Of a DNA stretch of 64,000 bases, positions 300-17,877 are shown one piece after another (the first letter of the stretch is position 1; the number at the start of each line of letters is the position of its first letter). The notes beneath the pieces are model-generated. The model was not told the DNA's origin. It ran no database searches and was given only the letters and a program-made list of their open reading frames with translations. The DNA is taken from positions 2,871-66,870 of the forward strand of contig JAKSKN010000008.1 in assembly GCA_024401695.1 (NCBI GenBank), given 5' to 3'. Position numbers and translations under genes: made by a program. Source of the DNA: Bacteroidales bacterium (GTDB lineage Bacteria > Bacteroidota > Bacteroidia > Bacteroidales > UBA932).

Positions 300-2732
300 A
301 TGAAAGCATTTTTCAACATAGCGAGGAACATCTTTGCAGTTATTGGCCTGGTATTTTCGATTCTTCTGGTATATGTGCTGTGCAGTGGGAAGTATGCAGC
401 AATCCGCAGCAGGGCCATACAAGGGCAGGCAAGCCACATTGAGACTCTGAAACTGGCCGGACCATACGGCAAGGACAAAGTCAAGTTCAATATCCACCCT
501 GCCATCGATTCAGAGAGGGCGGCTGAGATAAGGGAATACTTCCAGCTGGACACTCTGTATGACGGAACGGCTTCCACCTGGGAGAAGACACTGGCGATCG
601 CCCGTTTCGTTGCAACCAACATTCCTCACGCCAATCAGACGATACAGCCTGAAAAGAGGAACGCCATCTATCTGTGGGAGTACACGAAGAACACCGAACC
701 GGCATTCAATTGCAGGCTTCACAGCATAATGATGTTCGAGTTGCTTTCGTCTGTGGGAATAGAAGCCACATATATCACCTGTATGCCTGAAGACAGCAAC
801 GACACTGACTGTCACGTGGTCAATCAGGTCTGGCTCCCCGAACTCGGGAAATGGGTGATGATAGATTCCGACTCCGGCGGATTCTACGCGACTGACGAGG
901 ATGGCAAGCTGCTTTCGTTGCAGGAGATCAGAGAGTCATATATTCAGGGGAAGCCTATCCTATATCACCCACAATTTATTGAAAGGGGAAGTTCTGACAA
1001 CTGGTACTATGACTACATGGCAAAGAATACCTATTGGTTCTCCTGCTGGGAGACCATTCATTTTGACCAGGAGCCGGCTTCCGGGAAAGAAGCAGGAAGA
1101 TATATCCACCTTGTCCCGAAAGGATTCAAACCGTTCGGCATAAATAATTCAGACATAGTGACAAATGATTCCCGGCAGTTCTGGGCCAAGCCAGGCCGGC
1201 CCGGGGATCGTATCCTCGAAGACTTCGATTATTTCTTCCAGGCATTCGAGCAGACCCATCCCGATCCTTATTCCGCTTTTGGCGGCGAAAGGGAATTCCA
1301 TAAAAAGGTGAAGAAGCTGCGACGCACATTAAGCCACGCCGAAGGGATGGATGCAGACCGTCTGCAGGCGGAAATCGGTCGCTTTCTCGTGCCTCTGCAC
1401 GACGGCCACACATTTTGCGGGCAGATGCGCTATTCTTTTGATTCCGAAGTCCGGTTCCTTCCTCTGAACCTGCGGACAATGACAGACGGATTCTTCGTAT
1501 GGAGTGCTCTGGAAGACTTCAAAGGGCTGCTTGGGGCAGACGTTATGAGCATCGGTGGTATGCCGCTGGACAAGCTGATGGACAGACTGGCGGAATATGT
1601 CCCTTCCGAGAATGTCTATGGCCTGTACGGCGCCGTAAGCAGCTGGAAAATGGACAGCAATATGCTTTCGCTGATGCTGGATGATTTTGACGGCAAGAAA
1701 GTGGAAATGGGATTCAGAACTGTTTCAGGTACCGATACTACAGCGATTATGCCGTTGTTTACGGATGAAGAGATGCAGAGTGCCTCCTTCAGTTCGATGC
1801 CGACCGACCCGCGTTTCCCATCCTCGAATTTCGAGTACAAGTGGGCAGACAAGGAGCTCGGTGTCATGACTTTCAAATGCAGTCACATTGTTTCGCGCGA
1901 CTGTCTTCAGTATATTCTCGATCACGGTATGGGAGAATACGATGCAATCAAGGACTGGGCGTTCCCGAATACGCCTTTCGAAGAAATCCCTTCCATTGCG
2001 GAGCGCTTCGGAGCAATGCTTTCAGAGATGAAGGAAGCGGGGGCTCAGCATCTCATCATTGACCTTCGCGGTAACGGAGGAGGATGGAGTCCGATAGTAT
2101 ATCCTGTACTTTATCAGCTCTACGGCGATGAGTTTCTTACCACGGACCTGGGCTACTGCTATGAGACAAGGCTCTCGAAGTTGTATCTGCAGAAGAACAA
2201 TGTGACCCTTGAAGGATTCAACGAGTGGCAGGGATCCTCCTACCAGATCGGAGACCTGATGTCCGGTGATGTTGATGCAGTGCCAGAGACTATCAATGAC
2301 AGCCTAAGAAACGCCGTAATCGACAGCTATACGTGTCTGGACAAGGATATGCTCCGCGCCCAGAACGGTGAACCTCTTTACAGGCCGGAGCACGTGTATG
2401 TGGTAACCAATGAGGGTACCTTCAGCGCCGCGTTCCACTTCACATATATGTTGTGGAAGATGGGGGCAACGATTGTGGGGACACCAAGTTCGCAGGCCCC
2501 TAATACTTATATGGAGTCCACGCCCTTCAGTCTGCCGAACACAGGCATCCAATGTTCCGTTTCCAATGCCATTCAGCGCTTCTTCCCTTCCGGCGACCCT
2601 CGTGCGAAGATATTCCGTCCGGATTGGGCTCCCAGCTGGGAAGACTACAAACGCCTTGGATTCGACTCCCGTGCCGACCTGCTGTATATCCTTGAGAAAA
2701 TCAAAAATCAACAGAGCTTTCATCGGTACTGA
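300..2732 (+). CDS. Membrane-anchored transglutaminase-like domain + S41 (tail-specific) peptidase fusion
   Basis: N-terminal TM helix; FNCRLHS...CHVVNQVW...WVMIDSD (Cys-His-Asp triad pattern); C-terminal LIIDLRGNGGG and VVTNEGTFSAA S41 motifs; start taken at ATG 300 (294 possible). Confidence 0.75.
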   Translation: MKAFFNIARNIFAVIGLVFSILLVYVLCSGKYAAIRSRAIQGQASHIETLKLAGPYGKDKVKFNIHPAIDSERAAEIREYFQLDTLYDGTASTWEKTLAIARFVATNIPHANQTIQPEKRNAIYLWEYTKNTEPAFNCRLHSIMMFELLSSVGIEATYITCMPEDSNDTDCHVVNQVWLPELGKWVMIDSDSGGFYATDEDGKLLSLQEIRESYIQGKPILYHPQFIERGSSDNWYYDYMAKNTYWFSCWETIHFDQEPASGKEAGRYIHLVPKGFKPFGINNSDIVTNDSRQFWAKPGRPGDRILEDFDYFFQAFEQTHPDPYSAFGGEREFHKKVKKLRRTLSHAEGMDADRLQAEIGRFLVPLHDGHTFCGQMRYSFDSEVRFLPLNLRTMTDGFFVWSALEDFKGLLGADVMSIGGMPLDKLMDRLAEYVPSENVYGLYGAVSSWKMDSNMLSLMLDDFDGKKVEMGFRTVSGTDTTAIMPLFTDEEMQSASFSSMPTDPRFPSSNFEYKWADKELGVMTFKCSHIVSRDCLQYILDHGMGEYDAIKDWAFPNTPFEEIPSIAERFGAMLSEMKEAGAQHLIIDLRGNGGGWSPIVYPVLYQLYGDEFLTTDLGYCYETRLSKLYLQKNNVTLEGFNEWQGSSYQIGDLMSGDVDAVPETINDSLRNAVIDSYTCLDKDMLRAQNGEPLYRPEHVYVVTNEGTFSAAFHFTYMLWKMGATIVGTPSSQAPNTYMESTPFSLPNTGIQCSVSNAIQRFFPSGDPRAKIFRPDWAPSWEDYKRLGFDSRADLLYILEKIKNQQSFHRY

Positions 2733-2765
2733 TAAGCAGAAAAAAGAGCTTTTTCAAAATATTTC

Positions 2766-3377
2766 TTATACCTCGGTATATTTTTGCATAAGGCAGCGCA
2801 TCTTTTCTTCAAGGATGCGGGTCTGCTCGTCAACATAGTCGGCTGACAGTCCGCCTGCAGGGACTTCGATGGTGAACGGTTCGCCGACCATCATACCCGT
2901 CCTGCGAAATATCCTGTGCGGGCCGTCGATATAAACCATAGTGACAGGCACCCTGGCCATCACGGCGAGCATCGACACTCCTGAATGGAACGGAAGCTGT
3001 TGCCGGTGCAAGCCGTGCCGCCCTTCGGGAAAGATTGCCACGCAACCGCCTTCGGAAAGTATCTTCAGGGATTCGTGTATCCACGAGGTGTCGGCGTGCT
3101 GGCGGTCGATCGGAATGCAGCACGTGTGACGGAGGAAAAATCCGAAGCCCTTCTGCTCAAAACGGTCCTTCGCAGCGAGCGAATGAATGAGGGGGCCCTT
3201 CAGTGTGGTGCCTACGATGGGACCGTCCAGGTGGCTGGTGTGGTTGCATACAAGTATAGCCGGCCCTTCTATGCGAGGTTTCCTCTTCCTGGTCCCGTCT
3301 TCGGAATATACCTTGGGGTTGTACAATATCTTGACGAGGACCGCTATGATCCCGATGAATATTCTGTCTCCGTTCAT
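2766..3377 (-). CDS. plsC: 1-acyl-sn-glycerol-3-phosphate acyltransferase
   Basis: NHTSHLD (HX4D) and IFPEG motifs. Confidence 0.85.
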   Translation of the reverse strand: MNGDRIFIGIIAVLVKILYNPKVYSEDGTRKRKPRIEGPAILVCNHTSHLDGPIVGTTLKGPLIHSLAAKDRFEQKGFGFFLRHTCCIPIDRQHADTSWIHESLKILSEGGCVAIFPEGRHGLHRQQLPFHSGVSMLAVMARVPVTMVYIDGPHRIFRRTGMMVGEPFTIEVPAGGLSADYVDEQTRILEEKMRCLMQKYTEV

Positions 3378-3426
3378 ATCTTTTCGCTATGGAATCACTA
3401 AGATACATAAATCTTTAGGAATGATG

Positions 3427-3566
3427 AAAAAATAAGTTGGTAAAGATTTATGAGGGATTGTTTATGTATTTTGGATATGGAATGAAGGAGCGTAGCCGTG
3501 CTACGTGACTGAATGACATGTTCAAAAGACAAAACAAGAACCATAAAGATTACCAAGTTATTTTTT
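3427..3566. repeat. 140-bp hairpin/MITE-like element, copy 1
   Basis: Terminal inverted repeats AAAAAATAAGTTGGTAA / TTACCAAGTTATTTTTT; central GGAGCGTAGCCGTGCTACGTGAC; same length and ends as 15416-15555. Confidence 0.75.
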
Positions 3567-3643
3567 AAGAATGACTTAAACAATCTTATTGATTATTGGC
3601 CCATTTCCACTTACTTTGTAATAACCAATCAAACACAACCAAT

Positions 3644-4495
3644 ATGATAAAGGACATAGCACACATCGCCTTGAATCCATTGGATATGGACAAGACCGTT
3701 GAATTTCTCGACAAAGTGTTCGGATGGAAGAAAGTATTCGAACTTCATCACGACAACGGTGATCCGTGGATTATGTATATAAAGATCTGCAAAGACCATT
3801 TCCTGGAACTGTTCTATGATGCAGAGAACGACCGTGACTATGCCTATGACTTCACCAGGACCGGCTTCAACCACTTTTGCGTAACCGTCGGCGACATACG
3901 CAAGGCGCTGCAGGAAATATATGAGAAAGGCTATATCGACTCGCCTGAGCCTCAGATCGAGAAGAGTCTAAACAAGAACCTGTGGATCCACGACCCCGAC
4001 GGCAACGGCATCGAACTTCAGGAGTACGTCCCAGGATCCATACAGATGCAGAGCAACGAGGCCCCTTATCAGTTCGGACGCGAGGGCTACATAGGCATAG
4101 GCCACGCCTGTTTCGTGTGCAAGGACATCAAGGCATCGCTCGACTTCTACTGCAACAAGCTTGGGATGAAGTTGGCTGGCGTACAGGACAACGACGAGGG
4201 CAAGCCGTGGCTCCACTATGTACGCATTACCGACGGTGTATTCCTCGAGCTTATCCCGGACGGACGAGGCGAGAACCCCAACATCGGCTGGAACTCCCGC
4301 GGCTTCAACCACATCTGCCTCGAGACGGACGACCTGCTCGGGGATGTGGAGCACCTGAGGTCGATAGGCGTGGAGATCGCTCAGGAGCCCAAGACCGCGG
4401 CCGACCACAACTGGCAGGCGTGGATCAACGACCCCGACGGCAACAAGATTGAACTGATGATGCTCGCCCCGGACTCTCCGCAGAGCAAGGCATAA
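3644..4495 (+). CDS. VOC/glyoxalase family protein with two tandem domains
   Basis: Two repeats of H...E...GFNH(F/I)C...DPDGN.IEL; ATG at 3644 preferred. Confidence 0.85.
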   Translation: MIKDIAHIALNPLDMDKTVEFLDKVFGWKKVFELHHDNGDPWIMYIKICKDHFLELFYDAENDRDYAYDFTRTGFNHFCVTVGDIRKALQEIYEKGYIDSPEPQIEKSLNKNLWIHDPDGNGIELQEYVPGSIQMQSNEAPYQFGREGYIGIGHACFVCKDIKASLDFYCNKLGMKLAGVQDNDEGKPWLHYVRITDGVFLELIPDGRGENPNIGWNSRGFNHICLETDDLLGDVEHLRSIGVEIAQEPKTAADHNWQAWINDPDGNKIELMMLAPDSPQSKA

Positions 4496-13890: not shown

Positions 13891-15357
13891 ATGATTATCA
13901 AAAGGTTATTCAGCGCGCTCTGCGCGCTGGCCGTTTGCGTCGGCTGTGCCGGCGCAAAAAAGGTTGAATGCAAGTCGGCATCGGGCATTCTCGATCCGCT
14001 CGGCTACAGGCTCGATCTGAACATAGCATACAACGCCGACGGCTACTACGCAGGCAACTTCACCTTCGATGAGAAGACGTATATCGCCTTCGGCCGCACA
14101 TATGATGTTGACGACCCGGAAATCTCATTGCAGCTGTTCGAGAACGGATGCCTTGTCGGGGATCTCAATGTGATGTACGAGGAGGATATGGACCGCTGCG
14201 CCGGCACTTTCAACCAGGAAGACGGCAACAGGTTCGACATCGAGATGCGCACGAAGTCGGGCGCCACGATGGAGGACCCGTTCGAGCACCCGTCCTTTGA
14301 CAGCTTCGGCAGATACAACATCTACCACTTCCAGGTGGAGAGCGCAGATTATTTCTTCGCCAAGAGCATGATTCTCGTCAAGGACAGGAACGGCTTCGCC
14401 TTCTACCTGTCAGGCACGGGCGTCAACGGATACGGTTCCGTACAGAACTTCAACACGGAGAGCTGGACGGTCGTTCCGTACAAGGATGGCAAGATCACTT
14501 TCAAGGATGCTTATGACGACACCTTCGTGATTGAATTCTACAAGGATTTCATCATCGCGAAATGCCTTGAGGCCGAGGCCGTAGAGGATTACGAGAGCGA
14601 TGCAGCCTTCGCAAGCGGTGTCTTCATGTACACGGAAAGTACCGGAACATTCAATGAGTCCTGGCTCTCCCAGGGCGGTGAAGGAGACTGGAGCGATATG
14701 CCGGGGTCAGCCCTCACCAACTATTGGCCGTCCGGGAACTATCCGGACGTGGAGGATTTGCGGAACCACATCAAGGCATACGATATGGATGACCTGAGGA
14801 TCCCTGTTGACCTTGGAGGCGCTGATAGGACCAATATCCTGTCTTACTTCCGCGCCATTGCAAAGTCATTCAACAAAGGCATTCTCGGCAAGGCGCTCAG
14901 GGCTGCCGACGGCAAGGCCGCAGCCGGAGTCCAGTGGACCCTTGACACCCGCAACGGCTACTGCAAATGCATTGTCCCGGACAAGACGGGAAAGGAAGGT
15001 ATGGAAATGTGCTTCTGGCGCGGCCGTGACGGCAAGGACGTCGTCGCGCTAAATCTGCAGTACATAGGCTTGAACCCGAACGACGAGTCAGATATGCGCA
15101 TGCAGTATCTCGGGGTATTCTTCCAGTACAACCCTGCGAACAAGACACTCATGCCGGTCAGCACGAACGGCAACAACACCTTCTCGCTTTTCCAGTGCAC
15201 TGAATTGTACGGTGTCTTCCCTGACGACGCCGAGGATATCGATTCGATGAAGCTCCCTCGCGAGGGCAAGACCATCGAGTTCCTCACCTCCGACGGCGCA
15301 GTCAGGCACGCACTCCAGTGGAATGCCGAATCGCAGTGGTTCGATTGGACCAAATAG
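13891..15357 (+). CDS. Hypothetical lipoprotein, paralog of the previous gene
   Basis: Lipobox-like AVCVGC; GMEMCFWRGRDGKDVVAL; C-terminal WNAESQWFDW matches WNADAQWFKW. Confidence 0.8.
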   Translation: MIIKRLFSALCALAVCVGCAGAKKVECKSASGILDPLGYRLDLNIAYNADGYYAGNFTFDEKTYIAFGRTYDVDDPEISLQLFENGCLVGDLNVMYEEDMDRCAGTFNQEDGNRFDIEMRTKSGATMEDPFEHPSFDSFGRYNIYHFQVESADYFFAKSMILVKDRNGFAFYLSGTGVNGYGSVQNFNTESWTVVPYKDGKITFKDAYDDTFVIEFYKDFIIAKCLEAEAVEDYESDAAFASGVFMYTESTGTFNESWLSQGGEGDWSDMPGSALTNYWPSGNYPDVEDLRNHIKAYDMDDLRIPVDLGGADRTNILSYFRAIAKSFNKGILGKALRAADGKAAAGVQWTLDTRNGYCKCIVPDKTGKEGMEMCFWRGRDGKDVVALNLQYIGLNPNDESDMRMQYLGVFFQYNPANKTLMPVSTNGNNTFSLFQCTELYGVFPDDAEDIDSMKLPREGKTIEFLTSDGAVRHALQWNAESQWFDWTK

Positions 15358-15415
15358 GATCGATCTCATCAAATTTTCATCTCAAGATATTTCCATAGCT
15401 AAGTTAAGTGAAGCG

Positions 15416-15555
15416 AAAAATATAAGTTGGTTAAGATTGTCGAGAATTATTGAGGACAGATTTTGCTCTGAAGAGGGAGCATAGCGGGCTATGTGACCGA
15501 TGAAGAGTGAAATATGGACCAATAAGTCGAAGACAAGATTACCAAGTTATTTTTT
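15416..15555. repeat. 140-bp hairpin/MITE-like element, copy 2
   Basis: AAAAATATAAGTTGGTTAAGATT ... GGAGCATAGCGGGCTATGTGAC ... AAGATTACCAAGTTATTTTTT. Confidence 0.75.
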
Positions 15556-15626
15556 GAGATACACTAACATCTTTTTTGCAATAATAGTCTTATCTTTATA
15601 CGGCGAAACAATTAACTCCACCGGAT

Positions 15627-16061
15627 ATGGAACTGACAGAAAGCACCGCATTGATACGTTTGGGCATAAGCCTTCTTCTGGGAGCCTGCATAGGCATTGA
15701 GCGGGAGATACACAACCATCCTGCAGGACTGCGCACGTTCACACTCATCAGCATCGCTTCAACTCTGGCAATGCTCGTGTCAATCTGGGTCTGCCAGACA
15801 AATACTCATCTTATTAACGGTGACCCCGGCCGCATCGCGGCCCAGGTCCTCACCGGTGTCGGCTTCATCGGCGCCGGCCTCATCATCAAGAATTCCGCCA
15901 GCATCTCCGGCATCACGACCGCGGCCTGCGTCTTCGTGACATCCGTCATCGGCCTTGCCGTTGGCGCCGGCATGCTGCTCACAGGCGCCGCCGTCACGGC
16001 AGCAACAATAATCCTGCTCGTCTCATCACAGTTCCTCAAATTGGGGAAAGGAAAGAAGTGA
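15627..16061 (+). CDS. mgtC: MgtC/SapB family membrane protein
   Basis: IGIERE..NHPAGLRTF, DPGRIAAQVLTGVGFIGAG. Confidence 0.88.
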   Translation: MELTESTALIRLGISLLLGACIGIEREIHNHPAGLRTFTLISIASTLAMLVSIWVCQTNTHLINGDPGRIAAQVLTGVGFIGAGLIIKNSASISGITTAACVFVTSVIGLAVGAGMLLTGAAVTAATIILLVSSQFLKLGKGKK

Positions 16062-16097
16062 TCATCTGACTGCTCCCACGAATGAATTCGTGGGGTT

Positions 16098-17240
16098 CTA
16101 CTCTATCGCTCCCAACGGAGCGATTGGCGAGTACCGGGACAGCCCTTCCCGGAGTATGTTTTCCGCGGCGTTGCCGTCACGGTCGTGATGCGTCCCGCAT
16201 TCGGGACAGGTCCAATCACGGACGTTCAGGTTCTTGACCCTAATGTTCTTATAGCCGCAATTGCCGCAGGTCTGACTCGATGCGAACCAGCGGTCAATCT
16301 CAATCACCGTGTCGCACTTATACCTCAGCATTTCCTTGAAAATTGTCCAGCCACAATCCGATATGGCTTTTGCAAAATGCCGGTTCTTCACCATACCCTT
16401 GACGTTCAGGCTCTCAACGCAGACAATGCTGTATTCGGATGCAATCAGGCTGCTGACCTTATTCAGGTAGTCCCGTCTCTGGTTGCGGATCTTTTCGTGA
16501 CATCTGGCAACCGCCTCCTTCGCCTTGTACCAGTTCTTTGACTGAGGCTCACGCTCTCCAATCTTGCGACCCCTGTCATCGTAGATGTCCTTTGACTTGT
16601 CATAGCGTCTGGCCATCGTACGCTGCAGAACCCTCAGGTGCTTCAGTTCGGAAGTGTAGTGTTTTTGGTTTTCAAACACCACTCCGTCCGAACATACGGC
16701 AAAGGATTTCACACCGACGTCAATGCCGACAGCCTGACCGTTGTTCAGGGGTATGCGGTCCGGAGTTTCATAGAGTACGGATATGTAATATCTGTCAGTC
16801 GTTGTGCGGCTGACGGTAAAGGAATGTATCTTCGACTGTTCTATGGGCTTGTCCCTGTAGAACTTCACGGAACCCAGTTTCGGGATGCTCACCCTCCAAC
16901 GGGAATAGTCTATTCTGCAGGGTACCGGGATACGGAAAGACTCGTTGTTCCCCTTGCGGTGGAACACCGGCCAGCCGTTGTGTCCGTTCCATTTGTTCCT
17001 GAAAGCCTTGCCGAGGTCGATGATTGACTGCTGCAGGGCCTGTGACGGCACTTCCTTCAGCCATTCGTTCTCTGCCTTGAGTTGCGGAAGGCGCTTTATC
17101 AGAGCATAGTTGGATACTTTGTTCTCCCGTGCGAATGCCAGGGCGTTGTTATACACGAACCGGCAGCAGCCGCAGGTGCGGTTGATTAGCGAACGCTGCG
17201 TGGCGTTCGGACGGAGCTCGTATTTTATCGCCCTAAGCAT
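16098..17240 (-). CDS. tnpB: TnpB RNA-guided endonuclease
   Basis: N-terminal HTH (GCCRFVYN), RuvC VGIDVG / VESLNV / DRDGNAA, zinc finger CGNCG...CPECG. Confidence 0.95.
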   Translation of the reverse strand: MLRAIKYELRPNATQRSLINRTCGCCRFVYNNALAFARENKVSNYALIKRLPQLKAENEWLKEVPSQALQQSIIDLGKAFRNKWNGHNGWPVFHRKGNNESFRIPVPCRIDYSRWRVSIPKLGSVKFYRDKPIEQSKIHSFTVSRTTTDRYYISVLYETPDRIPLNNGQAVGIDVGVKSFAVCSDGVVFENQKHYTSELKHLRVLQRTMARRYDKSKDIYDDRGRKIGEREPQSKNWYKAKEAVARCHEKIRNQRRDYLNKVSSLIASEYSIVCVESLNVKGMVKNRHFAKAISDCGWTIFKEMLRYKCDTVIEIDRWFASSQTCGNCGYKNIRVKNLNVRDWTCPECGTHHDRDGNAAENILREGLSRYSPIAPLGAIE

Positions 17241-17673
17241 TTTTCTGATTCTCGATGTATTTGCGGATAGTCTCTTCCGAGATACATCCGATAGTCTCGC
17301 AATAGTACGAGCGGGTCCACAACGTATTCAACCGTTTGTTCAGATGCGGAAATTCAGCACGAAGCATCCTGGAACTTATTGCCTTGAGATTCTTTACAAT
17401 CAGATGCACAGGGGTGATCGGATTCCCCTTCAGGAACACATGCACGTGATCCGGCATTACTTCCATTGACTGTATCTCACAGTCCAAGGATCTTGCGATT
17501 TCAGGCAACAGCTCCTTTAACCTCTCGTCAACACCGTCCACAAGCACCTTGCGTCTGTATTTCGGACACCAGATGATATGGTAGTTGATGTTGACTACGG
17601 ATTTGTTGTTATGTGCAAGAACCTTTCCCATATTCGTTATGTACAAATATAGCGAATATTCTTTGATTTTCAT
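17233..17673 (-). CDS. tnpA: TnpA HUH (Y1) transposase
   Basis: YHIIWCPKYRR, MPDHVH (HUH), LWTRSYY; start may be ATG near 17631. Confidence 0.95.
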   Translation of the reverse strand: MKIKEYSLYLYITNMGKVLAHNNKSVVNINYHIIWCPKYRRKVLVDGVDERLKELLPEIARSLDCEIQSMEVMPDHVHVFLKGNPITPVHLIVKNLKAISSRMLRAEFPHLNKRLNTLWTRSYYCETIGCISEETIRKYIENQKNA

Positions 17674-17736
17674 AGAAAATCACGCCCTCTCATCCCACGA
17701 TTGAAATCGTGGGTTTTCCCGGGCGGAACTCATAAA

Positions 17737-17877
17737 CTTCGAAAGGACCTGGTTCAGGCGCAGCTTGTCGCAGACGATGCGTTCATCCCTGAGGTCAACG
17801 GTTTCAATCGAGAAATCGTGGCGCTTGTTCTGAATGTCGGCCATAGATATATCCTTTATGGTGCCGATGCTCTTCAA
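17737..17877 (-). pseudogene. Orphan internal fragment of a hybrid histidine kinase
   Basis: ADIQNKRHDFSIETVDLRDERIVCDKLRLNQVL resembles the HisKA-to-HATPase linker preceding the N box; both ends missing. Confidence 0.6.

Follow-up and report, generated by a model that had tools for sequence, protein, structure and literature searches.

Among the small transposable elements described in bacteria, the closest to those reported here are Nezha, Correia/NEMIS, RUP and ERIC: they too combine small size, terminal inverted repeats (TIRs) and target site duplications (TSDs) with a stable predicted hairpin, lie in AT-rich intergenic targets and are polymorphic between filled and empty sites. Correia and RUP duplicate TA. 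A 3-bp duplication of TTA or TAA is a hallmark of the PIF/Harbinger-Tourist group and of some IS5 subgroups. Nezha is a cyanobacterial MITE related to ISNpu3, with the matching insertion sequence (IS) in another species (PMC3184786), and for Correia, ERIC and similar hairpin MITEs, action at the RNA level is known (reviewed in PMC3184786). MITEs of Bacteroidales are described, in the searchable literature, from Porphyromonas gingivalis only. As far as it could be searched, the literature mentioning the ISAzo13 family of ISs describes no MITEs and does not state a TWA target.

Here we analyzed a 64,000-nt stretch of DNA (the window) from a Bacteroidales genome (G000; 74 contigs, 2.66 Mb, G+C content of 52%) that contains two long hairpins. 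Both are very probably MITEs of a family derived from ISAzo13-family ISs. Bacterial MITEs are a well-known kind and the class itself is ordinary; the noteworthy parts are the parent family and a conserved, strand-specific core. Compared with Nezha, Correia/NEMIS, RUP and ERIC, this family differs in sequence and host phylum (Bacteroidota), and its parent family is taken to be different as well. As for Nezha, the matching IS was found in genomes other than that of the MITE's host. In contrast to Correia and RUP, the duplication is a 3-bp TWA and the hairpin carries a conserved apical core of tandem G·A pairs. We found no description of this family in the searchable literature or in Rfam.

RESULTS

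Bounds and target site duplications

A preliminary description of the window had placed two hairpin elements, both of 140 bp, at positions 3427 to 3566 and 15416 to 15555 and had seen no TSD. Comparison of 16 genomic copies, whose span of identity runs from GGAATGATG to AAGAATGAC, set the bounds of copy 1 at 3418 to 3575, and copy 2 was corrected to 15408 to 15564, so that the earlier coordinates were 9 to 10 nt short at each end. Each of the 140-nt stretches is real, but the full elements measure 158 and 157 bp, respectively, and at the corrected bounds duplicated triplets appear, namely, TTA/TTA around copy 1 and TAA/TAA around copy 2. The subfamilies of copy 1 and copy 2 are termed e1 and e2. 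The features of the two sites are as follows.

2766 to 3377, - strand: PlsC-like acyltransferase, 203 aa; start codon 40 nt from the MITE; PF01553 matches the orthologous gene in L182 to L191
3415 to 3417, no strand: left TTA of the TSD of copy 1, repeated at 3576 to 3578; a single TTA in the empty alleles L182 and L183
3418 to 3575, + strand: MITE copy 1 (e1), 158 bp, GGAATGATG...AAGAATGAC; 130.7 bits with covariance model R1
3418 to 3451, + strand: left TIR and subterminal region of copy 1 (GGAATGATGAAAAAATAAGTTGGTAAAGATTTATG); pairs with 3542 to 3575
3480 to 3516, + strand: apical core of copy 1, GA-AU-GA-AG-GA-[GCGUAGC CGU GCUACGU]-GA-CU-GA-AU-GA
3542 to 3575, + strand: right TIR of copy 1 (...CATAAAGATTACCAAGTTATTTTTTAAGAATGAC), from folding, copy comparison and the match to an IS end
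3576 to 3578, no strand: right TTA of the TSD of copy 1, matching the left triplet
3644 to 4495, + strand: VOC/glyoxalase-family protein, 283 aa; start codon 68 nt from the MITE; PF00903
15405 to 15407, no strand: left TAA of the TSD of copy 2, same triplet on the right side
15408 to 15564, + strand: MITE copy 2 (e2), 157 bp, GTGAAGCG...GAGATACAC; 144.6 bits with R1
15565 to 15567, no strand: right TAA of the TSD of copy 2, same triplet on the left side
15627 to 16061, + strand: MgtC-family protein, 144 aa, downstream of copy 2; PF02308

Other elements of that description held. The termini are shared, the 21-nt right terminus AAGATTACCAAGTTATTTTTT having two matches in the window compared with zero expected and the left terminus being common too, and the apical motif is present in both copies. 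Pfam matches agree with the setting given for copy 1, an intergenic region between divergent acyltransferase and VOC genes. Elements of the family are 157 to 158 bp long and lack a conserved ORF, the short ATG frames varying, on inspection, among subfamilies. TIRs of about 30 nt are kept across 67 aligned copies; the canonical ends are 5'-GTAA(G/T)...AAAAAATAAGTTG and CAAsTTATTTTTT...TTAC-3', and the end pattern of e1/e2-type elements is G[T/G]AA-N5-AAAAAATAAsTTG....

Copies in the genome and choice of target

Of the 16 e1 copies in G000, 15 share one sequence and the other differs by one mismatch; this exactness may be inflated in part by the assembler collapsing near-identical repeats. All 16 lie between TTA and TTA or between TAA and TAA, the middle base being the same on the left and on the right in every case. 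Identical 3-bp flanks were found in 62 of 78 family members, 60 of these flanks being TTA or TAA, and the insertion target reconstructed from the 78 members is T|TWA|R in AT-rich DNA, with the 3-bp TWA duplicated.

Copy 2 is the sole full e2 copy in the genome, which additionally holds an e2-like short form beside an e1 copy on contig C8. This composite recurs at the end of C5, and fragments lie on C14, C7 and C5. In the composite (C8:22945-23231 and C5:72588-72716), an e1 copy or fragment abuts an inverted short e2-like element with TAAATTA between them; its twofold occurrence, once at a contig end, is due to duplication of the composite or to a break in the assembly. At C12:145630-145800, the flank after an e1 copy repeats the last 10 nt of the element (…TAAGAATGAC TAAGAATGAC TG…), and the ATG inside this repeat may start the downstream gene.

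Empty, filled and remnant alleles in conspecific strains

Empty-site alleles were recovered from contigs that encode an exactly identical flanking protein, either the 283-aa VOC protein or the 144-aa MgtC protein, and exact empty alleles were obtained for both window positions. The acyltransferase and VOC genes are 105 nt apart in contigs from other samples, compared with 266 nt in the window; L182 and L183 have exactly joined flanks with a single TTA, and point variants of the site occur in other conspecific contigs. In L186, a 19-bp remnant of the left end (GGAATGATGAAAAAATAAC) stands between two TTAs. The copy 2 site is empty, with a single TAA, in seven contigs encoding the identical MgtC protein. 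A 13-bp flank deletion lies adjacent to the copy 2 site in two contigs (L193/L196), and L201 carries the final 15 bp of e1 (its right end) at a TTA overlapping the TAA of e2. These remnant alleles (L186, L201 and L193/L196) may be excision footprints or hairpin-mediated deletions. A DNA search for the empty site in 40 relatives found none close enough, and an exact-protein look-up of the 203-aa acyltransferase returned no matching record.

Since filled and empty alleles coexist among strains, both window insertions are strain specific, and the e1 remnant of L201 marks the copy 2 site as a hot spot struck more than once. The MITE family has been recently active in this Bacteroidales species.

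Strains differ greatly in the region after mgtC (window positions 15900 to 17800 compared with L192 to L201). The window strain and L195 have an IS200/IS605 element (Y1_Tnp and OrfB/TnpB) downstream of mgtC, while an esterase gene, a hybrid kinase gene or a gene for an ABC-type ATPase directly follows mgtC in other strains.

ISAzo13-family ISs share the ends and the target

In genome G042, two inverted TIR matches (GTAAAATGTAAAAAATAACCTGCATCA and GTAATGTGTAAAAAATAAGTTGCATCA) lie 1459 bp apart between TTA/TTA flanks and enclose one 406-aa ORF (L053/L057). This ORF encodes an ISAzo13-family DDE transposase, scoring 404.8 bits with NF033519 (cutoff, 200 bits) and 305.6 bits with PF07592 (DDE_Tnp_ISAZ013). 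Three further full ISs (L056, L058 and L063; 1443 to 1471 bp) have the same end type, and two loci (L059 and L062) are internal-deletion derivatives of 671 to 707 bp. The full ISs are thus 1.44 to 1.47 kb long, with a single ORF and with ends and a TWA duplication as in the MITE. The flanks of the L058 IS are GTA/GTA; on the small contigs of L056 and L063, the 3-bp flanks disagree (TAA/TTA), perhaps because repeat collapse made them chimeric. In both e1 and e2, the two arms have their greatest similarity, over about 27 to 37 nt, to the transposase-3' ends of L056, L065 and L060, and in the left terminal region of copy 1 the resemblance covers about 35 to 40 nt.

A metagenome scan with a transposase alignment gave 80 ISAzo13 loci. 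Gut and environmental copies end in G(G/T)AA-N8-9-AAATAAsTT beside TTA or TAA, and most complete environmental copies lie between matching TTA or TAA triplets. Since the same terminus and TWA flanks recur in these metagenome ISs, they are properties of the wider ISAzo13 family, and the e1 end, GGAATGA, reads as an ordinary variant of the ISAzo13 terminus.

Within the genus, the family model detected an ISAzo13 transposase in 7 of 201 genomes, at full length in three, and all seven are among the 66 MITE-positive genomes (hypergeometric P of ~3e-4). ISAzo13 ISs therefore resemble the MITE in terminal type (G[T/G]AA...AAATAAsTT), in the 3-bp TWA duplication and in being restricted, in the genus, to MITE-positive genomes. 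They differ from it in that the MITE is about 158 bp long, has no ORF and has two arms that both resemble the transposase-3' end only, around a central core that is absent from all of the 80-plus ISs examined.

In the G000 assembly, neither tblastn nor the NF033519 model detected an ISAzo13 transposase, and a search for an autonomous copy by a fuzzy TIR scan and by a TSD-anchored TIR-pair scan gave MITEs and fragments only. One apparent IS pair, at C5 70918-72627, turned out to consist of a full MITE copy and an internally deleted copy.

The full IS of L053 (G042:C28, positions 1500 to 3120) lies within a CRISPR array, with repeats visible on either side, and its insertion point is the TTA of the 36-nt CRISPR repeat (cTTAatccttgttttagtggaatatagtctctgag). 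Metagenome contigs L221 to L225 contain a full ISAzo13 IS whose flanking TWA is the exact insertion point of a 148-bp MITE, one with ISAzo13-type ends and no GA core.

Distribution in the genus and beyond

R1, a covariance model built from five copies, matched 66 of the 201 genomes of the genus, often with at least 14 scored matches per genome; the genus comprises records titled Candidatus Cryptobacteroides and allies, gut and rumen Bacteroidales. Genome G180 holds about 45 family copies. Lone TIR matches in G004 all proved to be mini-derivatives or MITE copies truncated at the end of a contig. The shared terminus also occurs in public records titled Candidatus Cryptobacteroides sp., Alistipes sp. 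CAG:514 and CAG:435 and Bacteroides sp. CAG:770, as well as in those of horse-feces Candidatus taxa and of Bacteroidales MAGs. The plasmid and phage collections searched for the element gave no match.

G159, a genome placed in a different species of the genus, has an e2 element (L029) nearly identical to window positions 15408 to 15564, with few differences over 157 nt, which points to recent horizontal spread or to very recent shared activity. Among contigs classified as viral, one of 28 kb (L322; IMG/VR UViG_3300045988_155481) contains a full family member at positions 14760 to 14918, whose core scores 98.4 bits with the core-only model, R2.

A strand-specific hairpin with a conserved apical core

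The two 140-nt stretches of the window, folded as RNA, reach an MFE of -53.7 kcal/mol in copy 1 (z = -10.1) and of -49.5 kcal/mol in copy 2 (z = -9.1), and for neither hairpin was any of 200 shuffles equally stable. Comparison and folding confirmed that the arms differ between the copies yet pair within each. The same conservation of structure despite sequence change holds over 67 diverse copies, in a strand-specific manner. When these copies were aligned by MAFFT without fitting to a model (alignment A4), the inner hairpin predicted by RNAalifold showed compensatory changes in 27 of 31 pairs. Over the full 49-pair hairpin, 94.7% of cells are standard pairs, compared with 39 to 55% when the partners are slid by 1 to 3 columns. 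Double changes occur in 32 of the 49 pairs, and the covariation score is 0.339, compared with at most 0.114 in the controls, shuffle controls for covariation being unable to exclude effects of shared ancestry. Covariation in a palindromic transposon is insufficient by itself to establish an RNA gene.

The + strand folds better than its complement in 69 of 69 copies (mean, -49.6 versus -31.2 kcal/mol), and the paired columns contain 156 G·U cells versus 27 A·C cells. DNA energy parameters reproduce the asymmetry of the + strand; because RNA and DNA parameters give the same result, an RNA form and a single-stranded DNA (ssDNA) form are inseparable here. It is plausible that a single-stranded form, of RNA or of DNA, is under constraint.

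The tip of the hairpin follows the pattern GA-(1-2 bp)-GA-(2 bp)-GA-[6-7-bp stem, 2-5-nt loop]-GA-(2 bp)-GA-(1-2 bp)-GA on the + strand, each of the six GA dinucleotides being conserved in 58 to 67 of the 67 copies. The stem and the pairs between the GAs covary. In e1, this core (3480 to 3516) is a 7-bp stem flanked by three tandem G·A/A·G 2x2 loops. Pairing of the hairpin runs for about 70 nt, whereas the homology to the IS end stops at about 40 nt, and the core was not found in the autonomous ISs and their flanks, including all 80 metagenome IS loci. In G000 it is confined to MITE copies, and of 401 Bacteroidota genomes sampled, two gave a match to R2. A search of Rfam with the whole window gave no match at the gathering threshold, and a permissive scan of positions 3380 to 3620 returned chance-level matches only (E of at least 2).

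Consecutive 5'-GA-3'/3'-AG-5' mismatches are common to tandem sheared G·A motifs such as those of the kink-turn, box C/D and hammerhead RNAs, and the right arm of the core reads CUGAUGA, as in the hammerhead core (CUGAUGA...GAAA). The likeness is one of resemblance only. A kink-turn or box C/D motif was rejected, as the Rfam C/D matches were at chance level (E of at least 2), there is no 3-nt bulge and the loops are symmetric 2x2 in every subfamily; inspection showed no three-way junction, NUH site or second hairpin of a hammerhead, and no conserved frame by which the core could be a small ORF or a Shine-Dalgarno-hairpin-ATG arrangement.

A second MITE-like family of about 175 bp, with ends (A)GAAGCTGTTTTGAAAT..., was observed at L003, L006 and L009 (G006) and at L016 and the right flank of L002 (G004). 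Its termini are different, but its apical GA core is the same, with 88% identity over 50 nt. A 38-nt mini-palindrome with the ends of this second family adjoins a G004 copy, and the family is absent from G000.

Gene context and orientation

The e1 copies are intergenic and mostly near gene starts, 9 in divergent, 6 in tandem and 1 in convergent contexts (n = 16, by a crude ORF-based call). Among the 67 diverse copies, 18 lie in divergent and 8 in convergent contexts, and of those in tandem contexts, 14 are sense and 10 antisense. Tandem e1 copies were sense in four cases and antisense in two, so that orientation relative to transcription is at most weakly biased. An ATG lies 10 to 19 nt past the right end in about 8 to 9 of the 16 e1 copies. 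Start codons within 20 nt were tallied by hand at 14 right ends versus 6 left ends among the diverse copies and by eye at about 8 versus about 3 among the e1 copies, which is suggestive of a bias of the right end toward starts.

A scan for promoters and simple terminators detected neither in the element, the terminator scan covering positions 3300 to 3700, and no Bacteroidetes TAnnTTTG box was seen by eye in e1. An intrinsic terminator was also rejected: a GC-rich stem followed by a T run is missing, and within the hairpin the T run that is present pairs with the A run of the 5' side.

In G000, 15 of 17 insertions have the + strand of the MITE on the strand richer in C (negative GC skew); the counts for G138 and G180, from loci L282 to L354, are about 16 of 22 and 13 of 29, respectively. 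The skew of coding strands in G000 is ~0, so gene orientation does not explain the 15 of 17. The counts are heterogeneous across genomes, and a replication-related orientation bias of recent insertions is no more than a possibility.

DISCUSSION

The preliminary description had left the choice between a MITE or REP-like element and an unnamed noncoding RNA. Its MITE alternative is borne out by the TSDs, the copy number, the matching ISs and the empty sites; REP-like and free-standing RNA elements are not. In the model that we favor, an ISAzo13-type transposase supplied in trans would bind the ends of the MITE and move it. Since the G000 assembly contains no such transposase, the helper would have been lost, left unassembled or located elsewhere, in other strains or on mobile DNA. 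As both arms resemble the same, transposase-3', IS end, the element probably originated when one IS end was folded back on itself, with an unrelated core at the center.

The TTA/TAA duplication would also fit a Tourist-like MITE of the IS5 or PIF-Harbinger group, for which TWA duplications are classic. We consider such a parentage very unlikely: the TIRs are unrelated and no such transposase is associated with the MITE, PF13359 (DDE_Tnp_4) is absent from G000, G004 and G006, the PF01609 (DDE_Tnp_1) matches of G000 are on small contigs with ends unlike those of the MITE, and the MITE ends do match ISs of the NF033519/PF07592 type that themselves lie between TWA duplications. Scarcely credible, in turn, is a free-standing structured RNA family or a palindrome (of the REP/REPIN type or a PATE derived from IS200/IS605) that an HUH enzyme mobilizes, despite the long covarying hairpin and the presence of an IS605 element about 0.5 kb from copy 2. 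To our knowledge, HUH-mobilized elements have neither target duplications nor TIRs, whereas the present family has TIRs, consistent 3-bp TSDs and precise empty sites. Moreover, strains without the IS605 element keep MITE remnants at the site, L195 has the IS605 element and an empty site, and the core matches no Rfam family and occurs in G000 only within MITE copies. Derivation from ISAzo13-family ISs thus accounts best for the elements as such.

What the core does is a separate question. One could suppose that the covariation arose without selection, by independent fold-backs of diverged IS ends in each subfamily or by homogenization of the arms through intrahairpin repair, and the proximity of both arms of e1 and e2 to the same IS end, together with the shared-ancestry effects that shuffles leave in place, points that way. 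We hold this to be improbable, since fold-back predicts perfect palindromes that decay symmetrically, not an excess of G·U over A·C on one strand, and since the positions at which the six GAs interrupt the palindrome are shared by all subfamilies and by the second MITE family, while pairing continues well beyond the IS-end homology. If the core is selected, our tentative preference is that it serves the element's own propagation, as ssDNA or as a protein-bound structure. Nearly as likely, though we would still call it doubtful, is a role at the RNA level, the hairpin being transcribed inside 5' leaders or operons as a processing, stability, attenuation or protein-binding signal; the element would then still be a MITE, with an effect on the host or on RNA keeping the core conserved. 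The uniform asymmetry of the + strand and the prevalence of G·U over A·C would fit such a role, as would the invariant GA/GA loops, which are classic stable 2x2 loops of RNA, and the clustering of insertions just upstream of start codons, more often with the right end facing the start. Against it stand the only slight excess of sense over antisense insertions in tandem contexts, the lack of a Bacteroidetes-type promoter motif, a sigma-70 promoter, a simple terminator and an Rfam match, and the equal asymmetry under DNA parameters; selection on propagation is also the simpler reason for features that all subfamilies of a selfish element keep.

Because the core is confined to one strand, is absent from the parent ISs and is common to a second MITE family, we entertain, with some reserve, the idea that its ~37 to 80 nt constitute a functional single-stranded nucleic acid module that MITEs carry and exchange. 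Such a module might be a propagation enhancer, nucleating a hairpin or recruiting a protein on ssDNA, or else an RNA processing or regulatory signal for neighboring genes.

These findings tie a widespread repeat of a very large uncultured genus of gut and rumen Bacteroidales to the little-studied ISAzo13 family. With most of its insertions no more than a few tens of bases from a start codon, the element is a likely source of strain-level differences in expression, and it likely also causes contigs to break when MAGs are assembled. Conservation is as strong at the hairpin tip as at the transposase-binding ends, with a strand specificity that goes beyond plain palindromy, and the tip thus offers a concrete, mutable target for asking what the nonterminal parts of a MITE do.
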